A stretch of DNA of 64,000 nt, taken from assembly GCA_965248195.1 (NCBI GenBank), contig CBDFIQ010000002.1:96001-160000 (forward strand). The letters are read 5' to 3'. The number at the start of each line of letters is the position of its first letter. Positions within the stretch are counted from its first letter, which is position 1. Position numbers: made by a program. This DNA comes from Longimicrobiales bacterium. GTDB lineage: Bacteria; Gemmatimonadota; Gemmatimonadetes; Longimicrobiales; Gaopeijiaceae. Below, in pieces: positions 39,001 through 42,000 of the stretch.

Positions 39001-42000
39001 CAAGGTCCCGCTATGTTTTCCGCGAAAGAAAGGGTTCTTCACAAGATTTCTCAGGACGAAGTCATGTCGCACGCCTCGCTCCCCCATGACCTCGCTGTCC
39101 ACCGCGAAAGTGGTGGAACGATCATCATGCTTGTCATGGATGGGTTGGGCGGCTTGCCGCATCCGGACACGGGTTCCACCGAGCTGGAATCTGCCGCGAC
39201 CCCCCAACTCGACGCCCTCGCCGCACGGAGCTCCTTGGGCATGCTGGCTCCGGTAGGGCACGGAATCACGCCGGGAAGCGGACCGGGACACCTAGCGCTC
39301 TTCGGGTACGATCCCATTGAGTCGATGATCGGGAGGGGCGTACTCAGCGCGCTGGGGGTCGGGTTCGAGCTGCAGCCCGGGGACGTTGCGGCCCGCCTCA
39401 ACCTGGCCACCGTCGATCGTAAAGGAGTCGTGACGGACCGCCGGGCCGGACGTCCGTCGGACGAGGACGGGCGGCGCGTGATAGAGGGGGTCCGTGCCAG
39501 ACTTCGCGCTCCGGAGGGAGTCGAGGTGACGCTCATTCATGAGAAAGAGCACCGCGCCGTCCTCGTGCTTCGGGGCGAGGGTCTGGGGGCTGGTATCGCG
39601 GACACCGATCCGCAGCGCACCGGTCTCACACCCGTTCCCGCCACTGCCACCGGGGCGGACCCGGCGTCCGGGCGGACGGCGGCGATCGTGCAGGGCATCC
39701 TCGAACAGGTTCGGGAGATCCTCGCGGACGAGCCTCAGGCGAACTCGTTCCTCGCGCGCGGATTCGCGGCGTTTATGCCCTACCCCACATTTGAGACGCG
39801 GTATGGCCTCCGAGCGGTCGCGGTGGCGAGGTACCCCATGTATCGCGGCGTGGCGAGCTTGGTCGGCATGGCGGTCGAGGGGGTGCCCGACTCGAACGAA
39901 GGCAGCGTCGAGATGCTCGAGGGGCACTTTGGCGCCTACGACTTCTACTTCATCCACTTCAAGGACACGGACTCCCGGGGTCATGACGGTGATTTCGAAG
40001 GGAAGGTCGCGGCCATCGAAGAGGTGGATGCCTTGTTGCCTCGGATCACGGACCTCGGCGCCGACGTGCTCATCGTTACTGGCGATCACTCGACGCCGGC
40101 CCTTTACAGGGAGCATACCTGGCACCACGTGCCAACGCTCGTCGCTTCGAACTGGGCACGGCCCTCGGCGGAAGTGTTCGGGGAGTCGTCTTGCCGAGAA
40201 GGGGAGCTCGGGGTCGTGCCGGGCAAGGATCTGATGTCCTTGGCCCTCGCGCATGCCGTCCGACTCGACAAGTATGGGGCGTGACGGACCGCCTCCCCAG
40301 GACAACTTCTCCATTTTCCGTGAGAGGTACGCGGACCCCCATTCCGTCGTTGCCCTAAGGATGGAGCAGGAGGTATTTGGTCATTCGTCTGGAGTGGATG
40401 GCTTTACCACCCTCGAGGAGGCGGATGCCCTGTCCACCGTTCTAGGCGTAGGGTCCGGGTCCACGGTCCTGGACCTCGGCGCCGGTCGTGGTTGGCTCGC
40501 GGGTTATGTCGCCGAAGCGAGCGGCTGTCACGTGGTTTCGTCTGACATTCCCACCGACGCCCTCGTTGAGTCCAACCGGCGATTTTCTGCCCAGGGCTTG
40601 GTCGGTCGAGCAACCACCGTGGCTGCGGATGCGAGGGCTTTACCCTTTCGCCGGCAAGGGATCGATGCCGCAATACACTCGGATGTGTTCTGCTGAATTC
40701 CCGAAAAACTCTCCGTGCTGAGAGAATGCCACAGGGTGCTGAAGCCCGAGGGCGTCCTCGCCGGATACCTTATCCACACCCCGCCTGGACTCACGCCCGC
40801 ACAGGAGCAGGAGGCGGTAGATTTGGGCCCCTCCGCGGTGGGTGCCGAGCGTTCTCCGGCGGACATGGCTACCGAGGCCGGCTTCGGAGAGGTCGGTGTG
40901 GAGGACGTGACGGACACGTTCCTCGCGACCCTGGACCGGGTTATCTCGGCCCGTTTTTCCTACGAAACCCGGCTCCGCGAGCTGGAGGGGGATCAGGTTT
41001 TCGAGGACGAACAGGGCGAGAGCGAGGGAAGGCGCCGGGGAGTTCTCTCGGGGCTGCTGAAACGGAGCTTCATCGTTGCCCGGAAATGACGCACTCCGGG
41101 GAGGAGGCAACCGTGAGTAGCGCTACCCACCGAGTCCGTTAACTTTCACGAGCCCTCGTGCCGGACCCCCGGCCCGTGCCTCCACAAAATGTGAGCGCCA
41201 TGCTGTCGATCCCAATCGAGCGGTTCACGTTGGATAACGGCCTCCGGGTAAATCTCTCCCACGATGCCACGACCCCGGTCGTCGCGATCAACCTTTGGTA
41301 TGGCGTGGGATCCCGGAACGAGCGCGAGGGCAAGACCGGATTCGCTCACCTGTTCGAGCACATGATGTTCCAGGGCTCCGAGCATGTGCCCAAGAACCGG
41401 CATTTCGAGTTGATCGAGAGGGCAGGGGGCTCACTCAACGCGACCACTTGGTTCGACCGGACCAACTACTTCGAGACCGTCCCCTCACACCACCTGGAGC
41501 TCGCGCTGTGGCTCGAGTCCGACCGTATGGGGTGGATGCTTCCGGCCATGACTCAGGAGAAACTCGACAATCAACGCGATGTCGTCTTGAACGAGAAGCG
41601 GCAGCGTTATGACAACCAACCCTACGGCGACTGGGACGAGTGGATTCAGGCGATGGTGTTCCCGGAGTCCCACCCTTACCACCACACCGTAATCGGATCG
41701 ATGGCGGACATCGAGGCTGCCACGCTCGAGGATGTCGCCGAGTTTTTCCAGACGTACTACGTACCCAACAATGCAGTGCTGACCGTGTGTGGGGACTTCG
41801 GTCAAGACGAAGCCCTGGACCTCATCGAGCGGCATTTCGGGGGAATCCCGCCGGGTGGTGAGACCCCCGCCATTCCAGGGGAGCCGGATCTCGATCCCCT
41901 TATCGGCGGGACGGTGCGCGAGCGCGTCGAGGCCGAGGTGCCTCTCCCACGCGTTCTCATGGCCTCCCGCGTTCCCACGTATACCGATGCCGGTTTCTAC

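Follow-up and report, generated by a model that had tools for sequence, protein, structure and literature searches.

Methyltransferases that carry selenocysteine (Sec) are already known, namely the ArsM types, MduS, and the UXPK-star proteins. Sec-containing ArsM is a class I SAM-dependent methyltransferase in which Sec, within a UxxG motif, takes the Cys position of a soft-ligand site, and it has homologues with Cys at that position. Among methyltransferases without Sec, the group comprising PfPMT, AtPMT1, AtPMT2, RebM, MitM, AtmM, and TleD is the closest in structure to the enzyme described below, and in PfPMT the conserved His after strand beta-4 is catalytic. Vicinal pairs of Cys and Sec, or of two Cys residues, occur in thioredoxin reductase (C-terminal G-C-U-G), MerA (C-terminal C-C), and ArsD (C-C). 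In the portions of a 2026 inventory of selenoproteins drawn on here (PMC13188914), MduS and UXPK-star appear as selenoproteins with a methyltransferase domain, and the table of that review also contains MbdU, with a 'CU' motif, and SaoB, with 'CUxxT'. The H2S/methanethiol S-methyltransferase MddH is assigned, in the part of the source used here, to the UbiE family (COG2226), with approximately 37% identity to UbiE of E. coli (PMC11445057). Our analysis indicates that the present locus is very probably one gene encoding a methyltransferase with Sec at the catalytic position, and that it represents the Sec branch of a widespread Cys-Cys methyltransferase family; this reading was obtained from comparison of sequences and of a predicted fold.

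The window, i.e., the whole stretch of 64,000 nucleotides analysed from the genome of a Longimicrobiales bacterium (G000), contains two table-11 open reading frames on the forward strand, 40253-40696 and 40715-41089, that lie in a common frame. Translation revealed a single class I SAM methyltransferase frame at 40274-41089, composed of 271 codons plus a terminal TGA (41087-41089) and interrupted by one internal TGA, codon 141, at 40694-40696. The ATG at 40274 overlaps the 3' end of the preceding gene, which encodes phosphoglycerate mutase, and a second possible in-frame ATG is situated at 40253. The first-pass annotation had joined two gene calls (g01546 and g01547) into one 271-codon gene with a UGA at codon 141, in a motif H-x-D-V-F-C-U about 70 residues past a glycine-rich loop, and both the frame and the motif were as described. 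The SAM-binding loop G69-A-G71-R-G73 is encoded at 40478-40492, approximately 70 residues N-terminal of codon 141, and the active-site motif H135-S-D137-V-F-C140-U141-I-P-E-K145 at 40676-40708. The read-through protein, which ends in I-V-A-R-K, exceeded the gathering cut-offs of Pfam Methyltransf_11 (61.4 bits vs 21.2) and Methyltransf_25 (59.8 bits vs 27), and it has the GxGxG loop and the acidic residue (D91) after strand beta-2 that characterize class I enzymes. In a 32-sequence family alignment (A2), G69, G71, G73, D91, D137, C140, C/U141, K145, and R264 were invariant and H135 almost so. Sediment metagenomes sequenced in independent runs gave contigs that read across the TGA: record 17 of run X4 corresponds to 40227-40845, and record 25 of run X6 to 40568-40735 with no other letters, the sequence at 40694-40696 being identical among the matches listed. 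The single run recorded as RNA (X18; a further run, X19, is only presumed to be RNA) yielded contigs solely over 40100-40502 and 41198-41250, with none across the UGA, and is neutral on transcription there.

The distribution of the in-frame TGA was assessed in two samples, one of 401 genomes from the order and one of 401 genomes from the phylum, which together gave 37 carriers. In the order sample, 34 of the 401 genomes (including that of the window) matched with E values of 2.3e-36 or lower and 34-48% identity across 11 genus codes; each of the 34 had exactly one TGA, always in the same column, while weaker matches (E 4e-22 and worse) were without an internal stop. The phylum sample provided ten matches, each with one TGA in that column, and three of them were new. 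The UGA, said earlier to occupy one column in every ortholog, is thus now found there in 37 of 37 carrier genomes, although these are mutually related and the counts therefore overstate independence. All 33 other carriers of the order sample share the family code of the window genome (f1). The assignment of the family to Gaopeijiaceae proved too narrow, since the Sec form, at 48% identity, is also encoded in three genomes from families of the class other than that of the window genome (family codes f7 and f4). At least 119 metagenome contigs with the string TGY-TGA-N12-CTCTCCGTGNTGAGAG have it too. Of these contigs, 80 were fetched, and every one encodes the enzyme, with x-x-D-x-x-C-U and 31-48% identity, these loci having been picked by a pattern that already contains the TGA. 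The gene is abundant among Gemmatimonadota, and likewise in metagenomes from soil, sediment, and marine sources. Gene callers split it wherever it is present, leaving many fragments of 139-142 amino acids named 'SAM-dependent methyltransferase'; for ten N-terminal fragments, the cluster members carry only generic names. Because of this splitting, the abundance of the Sec gene is invisible in current annotation.

A search of representative proteins returned many full-length homologues of approximately 270 amino acids with the motif H-x-D-V-L-C-C and 30-40% identity, in which Cys aligns with the UGA column. A genome scan queried with a 10-row alignment of these Cys-Cys forms confirmed 319 species-level genome loci, mostly in marine Alpha- and Gammaproteobacteria. 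Among the best 80 of the 319, which were fetched, 79 have TGY-TGY codons at the pair. The proposal that the family is obligately Sec-dependent, with no Cys form, consequently does not stand: Cys forms are absent only inside the sampled order (401 genomes). A word-index protein search with the read-through protein gave nothing at E <= 1e-20, which reflects a limit of the index, since the exhaustive search recovered many homologues. In the ESM Atlas, a natural Cys-Cys protein (P0016) matched generic class I methyltransferase clusters only.

Downstream of the UGA, a SECIS-like hairpin was identified at 40709-40724, with a stem formed by 40709-40713 and 40720-40724 (CUCUC/GAGAG) and the loop CGUGCU at 40714-40719. 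Its first base lies 15 nt from the U of the UGA, leaving a spacer of 12 nt after the codon, and the whole element is within the coding sequence, in the codons K-L-S-V-L-R-E. A loop containing G and U and a 12-nt spacer agree with the E. coli SECIS rule, and the spacing is usual for bacterial SECIS elements. The single-sequence fold of 40685-40760 was not significant (z = -0.62; the stem has only 5 bp), and an Rfam scan of 40000-41400 at E <= 10 showed neither SECIS nor any other credible family; the support for the hairpin is therefore comparative. Its five stem pairs are intact in 34 of 34 order carriers, where the only changes seen were five G-U wobbles, each altering one side of the stem, and compensatory double changes were absent, so that the structure rests on sequence invariance and not on covariation. 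The five pairs were present in all 37 Sec forms, whereas none of the 79 Cys-Cys forms has them at the corresponding site. At the protein level, K-L-S-V-L-R is also read in the Dehalococcoidia protein P0003, one of the nearest Cys-Cys relatives. In addition, codon usage within the hairpin was compared with each codon's share elsewhere in the same 34 genes, whose proteins are 34-48% identical. Leu is encoded by CTC in 34/34 (26% elsewhere), Ser by TCC in 32/34 (17%), Val by GTG in 34/34 (34%), Arg by AGA in 29 of 32 Arg codons (9.5%), and Glu by GAA in 27/27 (33%). The conserved hairpin 15 nt downstream reported by the first-pass annotation was therefore recovered in every Sec form, and its synonymous codons are frozen.

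These data bear on a rival reading in which the TGA genuinely terminates translation and the locus is a split or decaying gene that yields a 140-residue product and a C-terminal product starting at a GTG, or a pseudogene. Such a reading could draw on the fact that gene callers split the locus everywhere, on the deletion by which two genomes of the same genus (G389 and G331) lost the core, and on a GTG seven codons after the UGA (U+7) in 34 of 34 carriers; because this GTG is invariant, start codons alone leave an independent start of the downstream half possible. However, the break would fall in the middle of the Rossmann fold, and the stretch from the TGA to the GTG keeps the reading frame, with Lys at U+4 in 30 of 34 carriers matching K145 of the Cys-Cys family. 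A single TGA in a single column in 37 of 37 genomes, down to 34% identity, also argues against decay, as do the intact homologues that align Cys at this position and the hairpin that accompanies only the UGA. We therefore regard a true stop as highly improbable.

The machinery for Sec insertion was found in the window genome, where selB (318.8 bits), selA (524.5 bits), selD (375.3 bits), and a tRNA-Sec (66.7 bits, at C2:1575603) all scored over their curated cut-offs, and thus each of the four components listed by the first-pass annotation could be confirmed. In this genome selD also contains a UGA, and a comparable hairpin, AAA-CUCGG-CAUGU-CCGAG, comes after it. Among the 34 order carriers, 33 have selA, the exception being a genome that is 78% complete; as selA is common in the order regardless (284 of 401 genomes), this co-occurrence is weakly informative. 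Reading of the UGA as an ordinary residue (Trp, Cys, or Gly) by a suppressor or a variant code seems barely credible. Two library proteins (P0007 and P0023) were called with W in a C-W motif, presumably by a caller using TGA as Trp, and would agree with such a code. On the other hand, TGA serves as the stop codon of both the upstream phosphoglycerate mutase gene and the methyltransferase gene; among the 34 orthologues, 24 end in TGA. The complete Sec machinery, the Cys at the aligned position, which is the usual counterpart of Sec, and a hairpin spacing that is customary for bacterial SECIS elements likewise speak against it. The UGA should almost certainly be read as Sec, guided by the conserved hairpin CUCUC-CGUGNU-GAGAG, which would recruit SelB with Sec-tRNA(Sec) while the ribosome is on the UGA.

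With respect to gene neighbourhood, the methyltransferase gene is preceded by a gene for a cofactor-independent phosphoglycerate mutase (38968-40284, forward strand; PF10143, 155.7 bits), which is not conserved beside the methyltransferase, and followed by two genes for M16 (insulinase-type) peptidases (41158-43850, forward strand; PF05193 and PF00675 in both). No conserved operon was found at 80 Cys-Cys loci (5 kb flanks; best 80 of 319) or at 33 Sec loci (1.5 kb flanks). Near the Cys-Cys forms, the most frequent genes encode a metallo-beta-lactamase-rhodanese protein and a cyclase-TPR protein, found at 8 of 80 loci each. The metallo-beta-lactamase-rhodanese fusion directly adjoins the methyltransferase gene on the same strand at 7 of 80 loci, three times upstream and four times downstream, which may offer a hint of the substrate; all seven are Cys-Cys loci, and no Sec locus is among them.

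When compared to enzymes of known structure, the AF2 model (pLDDT 93.1, whole chain) shares its whole fold, Rossmann core and helical lid, with the PMT/RebM/MitM group. Foldseek placed AtPMT1 first (E = 2.5e-20), with the group ranging from 2.5e-20 to 1e-15 at 17-26% identity and TM-scores of 0.78-0.79 on query length and 0.82-0.83 on target length (RebM, PfPMT). The C-methyltransferases TleD and geranyl diphosphate methyltransferase were also among the structural neighbours. A profile search of the PDB gave MitM (1.6e-30), RebM (6e-29), and AtPMT2 (2.2e-28), with PMT/RebM-type matches down to 5e-17, whereas ArsM structures were far weaker (2.3e-10 to 2.7e-7). In the paralogue and PDB profile alignments, C140-U141 (or C-C) falls under N-H, I-H, H-H, or L-H of the relatives without Sec, and 10 of 10 paralogues from the same order have His in the U column. 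Thus, where the PMT/RebM/MitM-type enzymes have their conserved His, this family has Sec or Cys, preceded by an invariant Cys. The D-x-x-x-H spacing of the PMT/RebM-type active-site motif equals that from D137 to U141, and PDB entry titles name the PfPMT mutants H132A, D128A, and Y19F. Judging from these titles, the spacing, and the alignment with AtPMT2, residue 141 is probably equivalent to His132 of PfPMT.

The curated models did not accommodate the protein. The best NCBIfam match, the DVU_1556 family methyltransferase (NF045667), reached 56.7 bits against a cut-off of 155 and likewise ranked first for all 12 Cys-Cys representatives that were scored (38-72 bits); with all scores so far below the cut-off, membership of this family was rejected. 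ArsM (NF008823; 35.5 bits vs 263) was rejected too, and its fusion forms NF041536 and NF041537 scored 31.3 and 40.8 bits against 575 and 510. The motif UxxG of Sec-containing ArsM differs from the C-U found here, and an ungapped match to the ArsM motif would presumably leave the closest Cys of ArsM four positions N-terminal of U141. MduS (NF045649) was discarded at 25.7 bits against 380, as the window protein has one Sec, in C-U and not CxxU, and so was methyltransferase/UXPK-star (NF047649) at 37.5 bits against 460, its U-X-P-K-stop ending being missing from the C-terminus. Both of these families have two Sec residues in CxxU or UxxG motifs, in contrast to the single Sec of the present enzyme. 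The reported failure to fit any NCBI selenoprotein methyltransferase model was thereby reproduced, with the same scores (56.7, 40.8, 37.5, and 25.7 bits). The UbiE models, at 30-41 bits against cut-offs of 216-378, showed that the protein is not close to UbiE; MddH was compared by description. Compared by motif, the pairs of thioredoxin reductase, MerA, ArsD, MbdU, and SaoB are likewise adjacent Cys-Sec or Cys-Cys residues that are redox-active or bind soft metals, but they lie outside any methyltransferase active site, unlike the pair described here. The family has no entry among curated families or in the published selenoprotein inventories, as far as the parts of PMC13188914 and the others that we drew on extend.

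In the proposed mechanism, Sec141 and the invariant Cys140 would sit at the end of strand beta-4, beside the methyl-acceptor site, in place of the His of PMT/RebM/MitM-type enzymes, and the Cys-Sec or Cys-Cys pair would hold a soft, thiophilic acceptor atom facing the methyl group of SAM. After transfer, the neighbouring Cys may close a vicinal selenenylsulfide or disulfide and thereby free the product. Only tentatively can candidate substrates be named: the sulfur or selenium of a persulfide or perselenide, or a metalloid such as As(III). Alternatively, Sec could be inserted without the pair holding the substrate, acting as a redox switch or as a general base in place of His in an N- or O-methyltransferase for a small anionic metabolite. 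This is a possible explanation, although not the one we favour; the PMT/RebM-like fold and lid agree with it, K145 and R264, both invariant, offer a possible binding site for an anionic group, and a vicinal Cys-Sec is a redox centre in thioredoxin reductase. That both positions are invariant in hundreds of sequences, exactly where the catalytic His would be, goes beyond what a switch usually demands, but the present data fit this alternative as well as the substrate-holding role. Sec or Cys at position 141 might instead act as a covalent nucleophile, as in m5C/m5U-type enzymes, adding to an activated double bond for C-methylation. The C-methyltransferases TleD and geranyl diphosphate methyltransferase among the structural neighbours, and the fact that Sec surpasses Cys both as a nucleophile and as a leaving group, are compatible with this idea. 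It nevertheless leaves the invariance of the preceding Cys unexplained, and we know of no Cys-nucleophile enzyme in this structural clade, which makes such a role quite improbable. Returning to the substrate-holding pair, a more far-reaching version, which we consider rather unlikely, is that the Cys-Cys and Cys-Sec enzymes constitute a new class of chalcogen/metalloid methyltransferases unrelated to ArsM, MddA, and MddH, in which the pair carries the atom covalently. SAM would then methylate the bound atom, which could be sulfane sulfur, selenium, or As(III)/Sb(III), and the product would leave as the pair closes into a vicinal disulfide or selenenylsulfide ring.

With regard to the known Sec methyltransferases, which have models of their own, the novelty of the present family lies in its absence from the inventories, in the parts drawn on here, and in a Sec that stands beside an invariant Cys at the position of the relatives' His. 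The exchange between Sec and Cys marks residue 141 as chemically essential and leads to the whole Cys-Cys family of 319 loci, whose members, among them those of cultured hosts (Pelagibius marinus, for example) and of a Mesorhizobium isolate, can be expressed and assayed directly. Provided that a soft acceptor atom is what the pair holds, the family would be relevant to how sulfur, selenium, or arsenic is methylated biologically. Should the proposal of a chalcogen/metalloid class be true, these enzymes could account for a so far overlooked release of volatile methylated sulfur, selenium, or arsenic by hundreds of marine and sediment species, with the Sec forms representing the high-activity version.

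The methyltransferase gene of the window is a forward-strand reading frame of 271 codons (40274-41089), closed by a TGA at 41087-41089, and its sole interruption on translation is the in-frame TGA of codon 141 (40694-40696, forward strand). ORF calling with table 11 splits it into 40253-40696 and 40715-41089, which lie in a common frame, in agreement with the first-pass annotation, which had joined two calls into one gene; the coordinates and numbers of that annotation, NCBIfam scores included, were all reproduced. The read-through protein matches Pfam Methyltransf_11 with 61.4 bits (cut-off 21.2) and carries G-A-G-R-G as its SAM loop (residues 69-73) and the motif H135-S-D137-V-F-C140-U141-I-P-E-K145. 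A hairpin, CUCUC-CGUGCU-GAGAG, occupies 40709-40724 of the same strand, starting 15 nt from the U of the UGA. SelB carrying Sec-tRNA(Sec) would bind this hairpin, which is in frame and lies 12 nt beyond the UGA, to deliver Sec; the minimal E. coli fdhF element has an 11-nt spacing. Its neighbours in the window are genes for a phosphoglycerate mutase (upstream) and two M16 peptidases (downstream). We confirm it as a real, rightly spotted predicted selenoprotein gene.

The Sec machinery that had been reported for this genome (G000) is present, with selA (524.5 bits), selB (318.8 bits), selD (375.3 bits) and tRNA-Sec (66.7 bits, C2:1575603) all scoring above their cut-offs. The selD gene (L049, G000:C1:691290-692213) is itself a selenoprotein gene with its own in-frame TGA, the U lying in G-A-G-U-A-C-K, and this UGA is followed by an AAA-CUCGG-CAUGU-CCGAG hairpin 12 nt from the U, similar in size and setting to the methyltransferase hairpin. 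Across the order, selA was found in 284 of 401 genomes and in 33 of the 34 carriers of the Sec gene, a tally that takes in the unpublished genomes G030, G147, G081, G156 and G095, on which no result depends; it was not found in the carrier G375, which is 78% complete. This co-occurrence is consistent with Sec use and weakly discriminating.

A six-frame search (E <= 2.3e-36) identified Sec forms, i.e., homologues with the in-frame TGA, in 34 of the 401 order genomes (G000 included), spanning 11 genus codes at 34-48% identity. All 34 matches hold exactly one TGA, as had been claimed, and the 33 other carriers all belong to the window's own family (f1). The proposed confinement to Gaopeijiaceae does not hold, since a sample of 401 genomes from the phylum gave 10 matches at E <= 1e-25, each with one TGA, including three new carriers beyond the order, all at 48% identity: G480 (family f7), G540 and G708 (both family f4). 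The Sec orthologue of G708 (L133, on C141) has an extra in-frame TAG close to its C-terminus (G-I-D-A-G-stop-L-L-R-S), which makes it a pseudogene unless the assembly is wrong here.

Taken alone, the window hairpin is unremarkable (single-sequence fold z-score -0.62), and an Rfam scan around it returned zero matches at E <= 10. Its conservation downstream of the UGA was upheld, as all five stem pairs are intact in the 34 aligned order sequences, where stem variation amounts to five one-sided changes to G-U and zero compensatory double changes. Constraint on synonymous sites is stronger evidence for the hairpin than this conservation of pairs. Compared with codon use elsewhere in the same genes, the hairpin has Leu CTC in 34/34 genes (26% of Leu codons elsewhere), Ser TCC in 32/34 (17%), Val GTG in 34/34 (34%), Arg AGA at 29 of 32 Arg codons (9.5%), and Glu GAA at 27 of 27 (33%). 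The carriers are related to each other and these counts are not independent events; despite this kinship, synonymous sites should long be randomised given protein identities down to 31-34%. In the homologous 16 nt, five of five pairs are possible in 37/37 Sec forms versus 0/79 Cys-Cys forms (homologues with Cys at both 140 and 141), among which 7 can form no pair, 25 one, 26 two, 12 three, and 9 four.

Environmental DNA provided further copies. A scan for the pattern TGY-TGA-N12-CTCTCCGTGNTGAGAG hit at least 119 metagenome contigs, and all 80 contigs fetched, which were picked by a pattern that itself holds the TGA and the hairpin string, encode this enzyme: their products have x-x-D-x-x-C-U and are 31-48% identical to the window protein. 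The UGA is spanned by contigs from metagenome runs of sediment and marine sediment, among them record 17 of run X4 (40227-40845, 3 other letters) and record 25 of run X6 (40568-40735, 0 other letters), and among the matches listed (40 of 74) there was no variant at 40694-40696. Several metagenome contigs resemble the window solely at about 40676-40732 and diverge on both flanks, and summed contig depth is highest in this same bin; thus, for divergent relatives in these samples, nucleotide-level likeness to the window is confined to the UGA-hairpin stretch.

Gene-less arrangements of the locus were also observed. One X6 contig (marine sediment; depth 5.8; shorter side 30 letters) fuses 40286 to 41134, skipping the whole methyltransferase gene, and may represent a natural gene-less variant. 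Two genomes of the same genus, G389 (L045) and G331 (L046), keep the syntenic locus with 82-87% nucleotide identity on both flanks, but the core of the methyltransferase is gone from it, along with the TGA and the hairpin. Their deletions differ, with window positions 40326-40911 missing in G389 and 40393-40933 in G331, which also has about 830 extra bases ahead of the remnant; gene calling yields ORFs of 74-91 aa (P0048, P0104) from what is left. The seven other genomes of the genus gave zero matches. selA is present in eight of these nine genomes, including G389 and G331, with no match in the ninth (G373, 73% complete).

The first-pass annotation had seen no Cys form, an absence that proved limited to the sampled order. 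When 1.84 billion representative proteins were searched exhaustively without a profile, 5308 matched at E <= 0.001, 28 of them at E <= 1e-30. Among the best 150 of the 5308, many fragments stop exactly at residue 140 or begin just past 141 and are split calls of Sec forms, many full-length proteins of ~270 aa have H-x-D-V-L-C-C at 27-40% identity, and two proteins have C-W at the site. The closest named Cys-Cys protein among the matches listed was P0003, from a Dehalococcoidia MAG (40% identity). Two peptide patterns derived from Cys-Cys forms were used to scan one genome for each of 185,579 species, and 319 of 364 candidate loci were confirmed. The best 80 of the 319 belong mostly to marine Alphaproteobacteria (Paracoccaceae, Hyphomicrobiales, Kiloniellaceae, Pelagibius marinus, a Mesorhizobium isolate) and Gammaproteobacteria (Arenicellales, Acidiferrobacteraceae), plus three MAGs, labelled Akkermansiaceae, Haliangium and Gemmatimonadota respectively; 79 of these 80 have TGY-TGY codons, one search pattern having demanded two Cys. 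Columns G69, G71, G73, D91, D137, C140, C/U141, K145 and R264 are invariant in a 32-sequence alignment. Within the sampled order, the only stop-free matches were 10 loci of a paralogous D-A-I-N-H family, one from the unpublished G030. These N-H paralogues (L035-L044; ~270-300 aa; D-A-I-N-H-L-P-D-R at the site; 27-33% identity to the window protein) come from 10 order-sample genomes, mainly of family f3, and look like ordinary His-type PMT/RebM-like enzymes.

A quick tree by maximum likelihood, with the 10 N-H paralogues as outgroup, had 118 rows in all; besides the outgroup it comprised 32 Sec forms of the order sample (the 34 less two short sequences, and without the three phylum-sample forms), 31 of 78 usable genome Cys-Cys rows (28 random and 5 chosen, two overlapping), 44 Cys-Cys representatives, and one C-W row. 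A branch with SH-aLRT 90, under the star threshold, has the Sec forms on one side; they share a polytomy with a few of the Cys-Cys representatives, and next to them lies a large Cys-Cys clade of mainly proteobacterial members (support 93). The Cys-Cys form of the MAG labelled Gemmatimonadota (L130) falls within that clade next to P0038 (support 99), a placement that points to horizontal transfer or faulty binning.

No NCBIfam model reached its cut-off on the read-through protein, so the reported lack of fit to NCBI's selenoprotein methyltransferase models is borne out; the best was DVU_1556 (56.7 bits against 155), also the best model for 12/12 Cys-Cys representatives (38-72 bits). An AF2 model from the family alignment (pLDDT 93.1, pTM 0.89) matched AtPMT1 (2.5e-20), TleD, RebM, PfPMT, sarcosine/dimethylglycine methyltransferase, AtmM and MitM in Foldseek, with target-length TM of 0.82-0.83 for RebM and PfPMT. 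Profile searches of the PDB gave MitM (1.6e-30), RebM (6e-29), AtPMT2 (2.2e-28) and AtPMT1 (4.4e-27), whereas ArsM structures matched far more weakly (2.3e-10 to 2.7e-7). In these profile alignments C-C(U) lies under I-H of MitM, H-H of RebM and L-H of AtPMT2, and a His stands below U141 in 10/10 N-H paralogues. PDB titles name the PfPMT mutants Y19F, D128A and H132A; the D128-to-H132 spacing equals that of D137 to U141, and His132 is presumably the catalytic base. Together, the His columns, the spacing and the presumed role of His132 place the predicted Sec at the catalytic position, beside the methyl-acceptor site and preceded by an invariant Cys.

The G-C-U-G of thioredoxin reductase and the C-C pairs of MerA and ArsD are soft-metal or redox centres. 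At its putative acceptor site the enzyme has a vicinal pair, Cys-Sec or Cys-Cys, that resembles these, as well as MbdU ('CU') and SaoB ('CUxxT'), selenoproteins in the table of a 2026 review (PMC13188914). On this likeness we tentatively favour methylation of a thiophilic atom (sulfane sulfur, selenium or of As(III) type) held on the pair, a possible rather than a probable reaction. The neighbouring Cys may free the product after methyl transfer. A metallo-beta-lactamase-rhodanese fusion gene (PF00753 + PF00581) directly adjoins on the same strand at 7 of the best 80 Cys-Cys loci (L053, L060, L061, L063, L083, L084, L091), upstream in three and downstream in four. We take this architecture to be a persulfide dioxygenase-rhodanese fusion, and its adjacency is a modest hint that sulfide or persulfide handling may be involved; there were no other conserved neighbours at the best 80 of the 319 Cys-Cys loci or at the Sec loci.

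Selenoprotein methyltransferases are a kind already known, and the window protein belongs among them. Inventories (GOS selenoproteome, PMC2398784; 2022 review, PMC9312934; 2026 review, PMC13188914) include, in the passages concerned, arsenite methyltransferase (UxxG), methylated-DNA-protein-cysteine methyltransferase, MduS (CxxU), methyltransferase/UXPK-star (UxxG), and two ArsM fusions. A C-U methyltransferase is absent from their passages on 'methyltransferase' (all 7 occurrences of the word in PMC13188914), and supplementary tables could list more families; 'Gemmatimonad' does not occur in the 2026 review. The 'methyltransferase' selenoprotein reported from eukaryotes and bacteria in 2007 (PMC2375036) is arsM according to the GOS paper (PMC2398784). 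MddH, described as a UbiE-family enzyme (PMC11445057), is not close to the window protein by NCBIfam scores. What sets the finding apart is the predicted Sec at the position of the catalytic His, together with the large uncharacterised Cys-Cys family that it brought to light.
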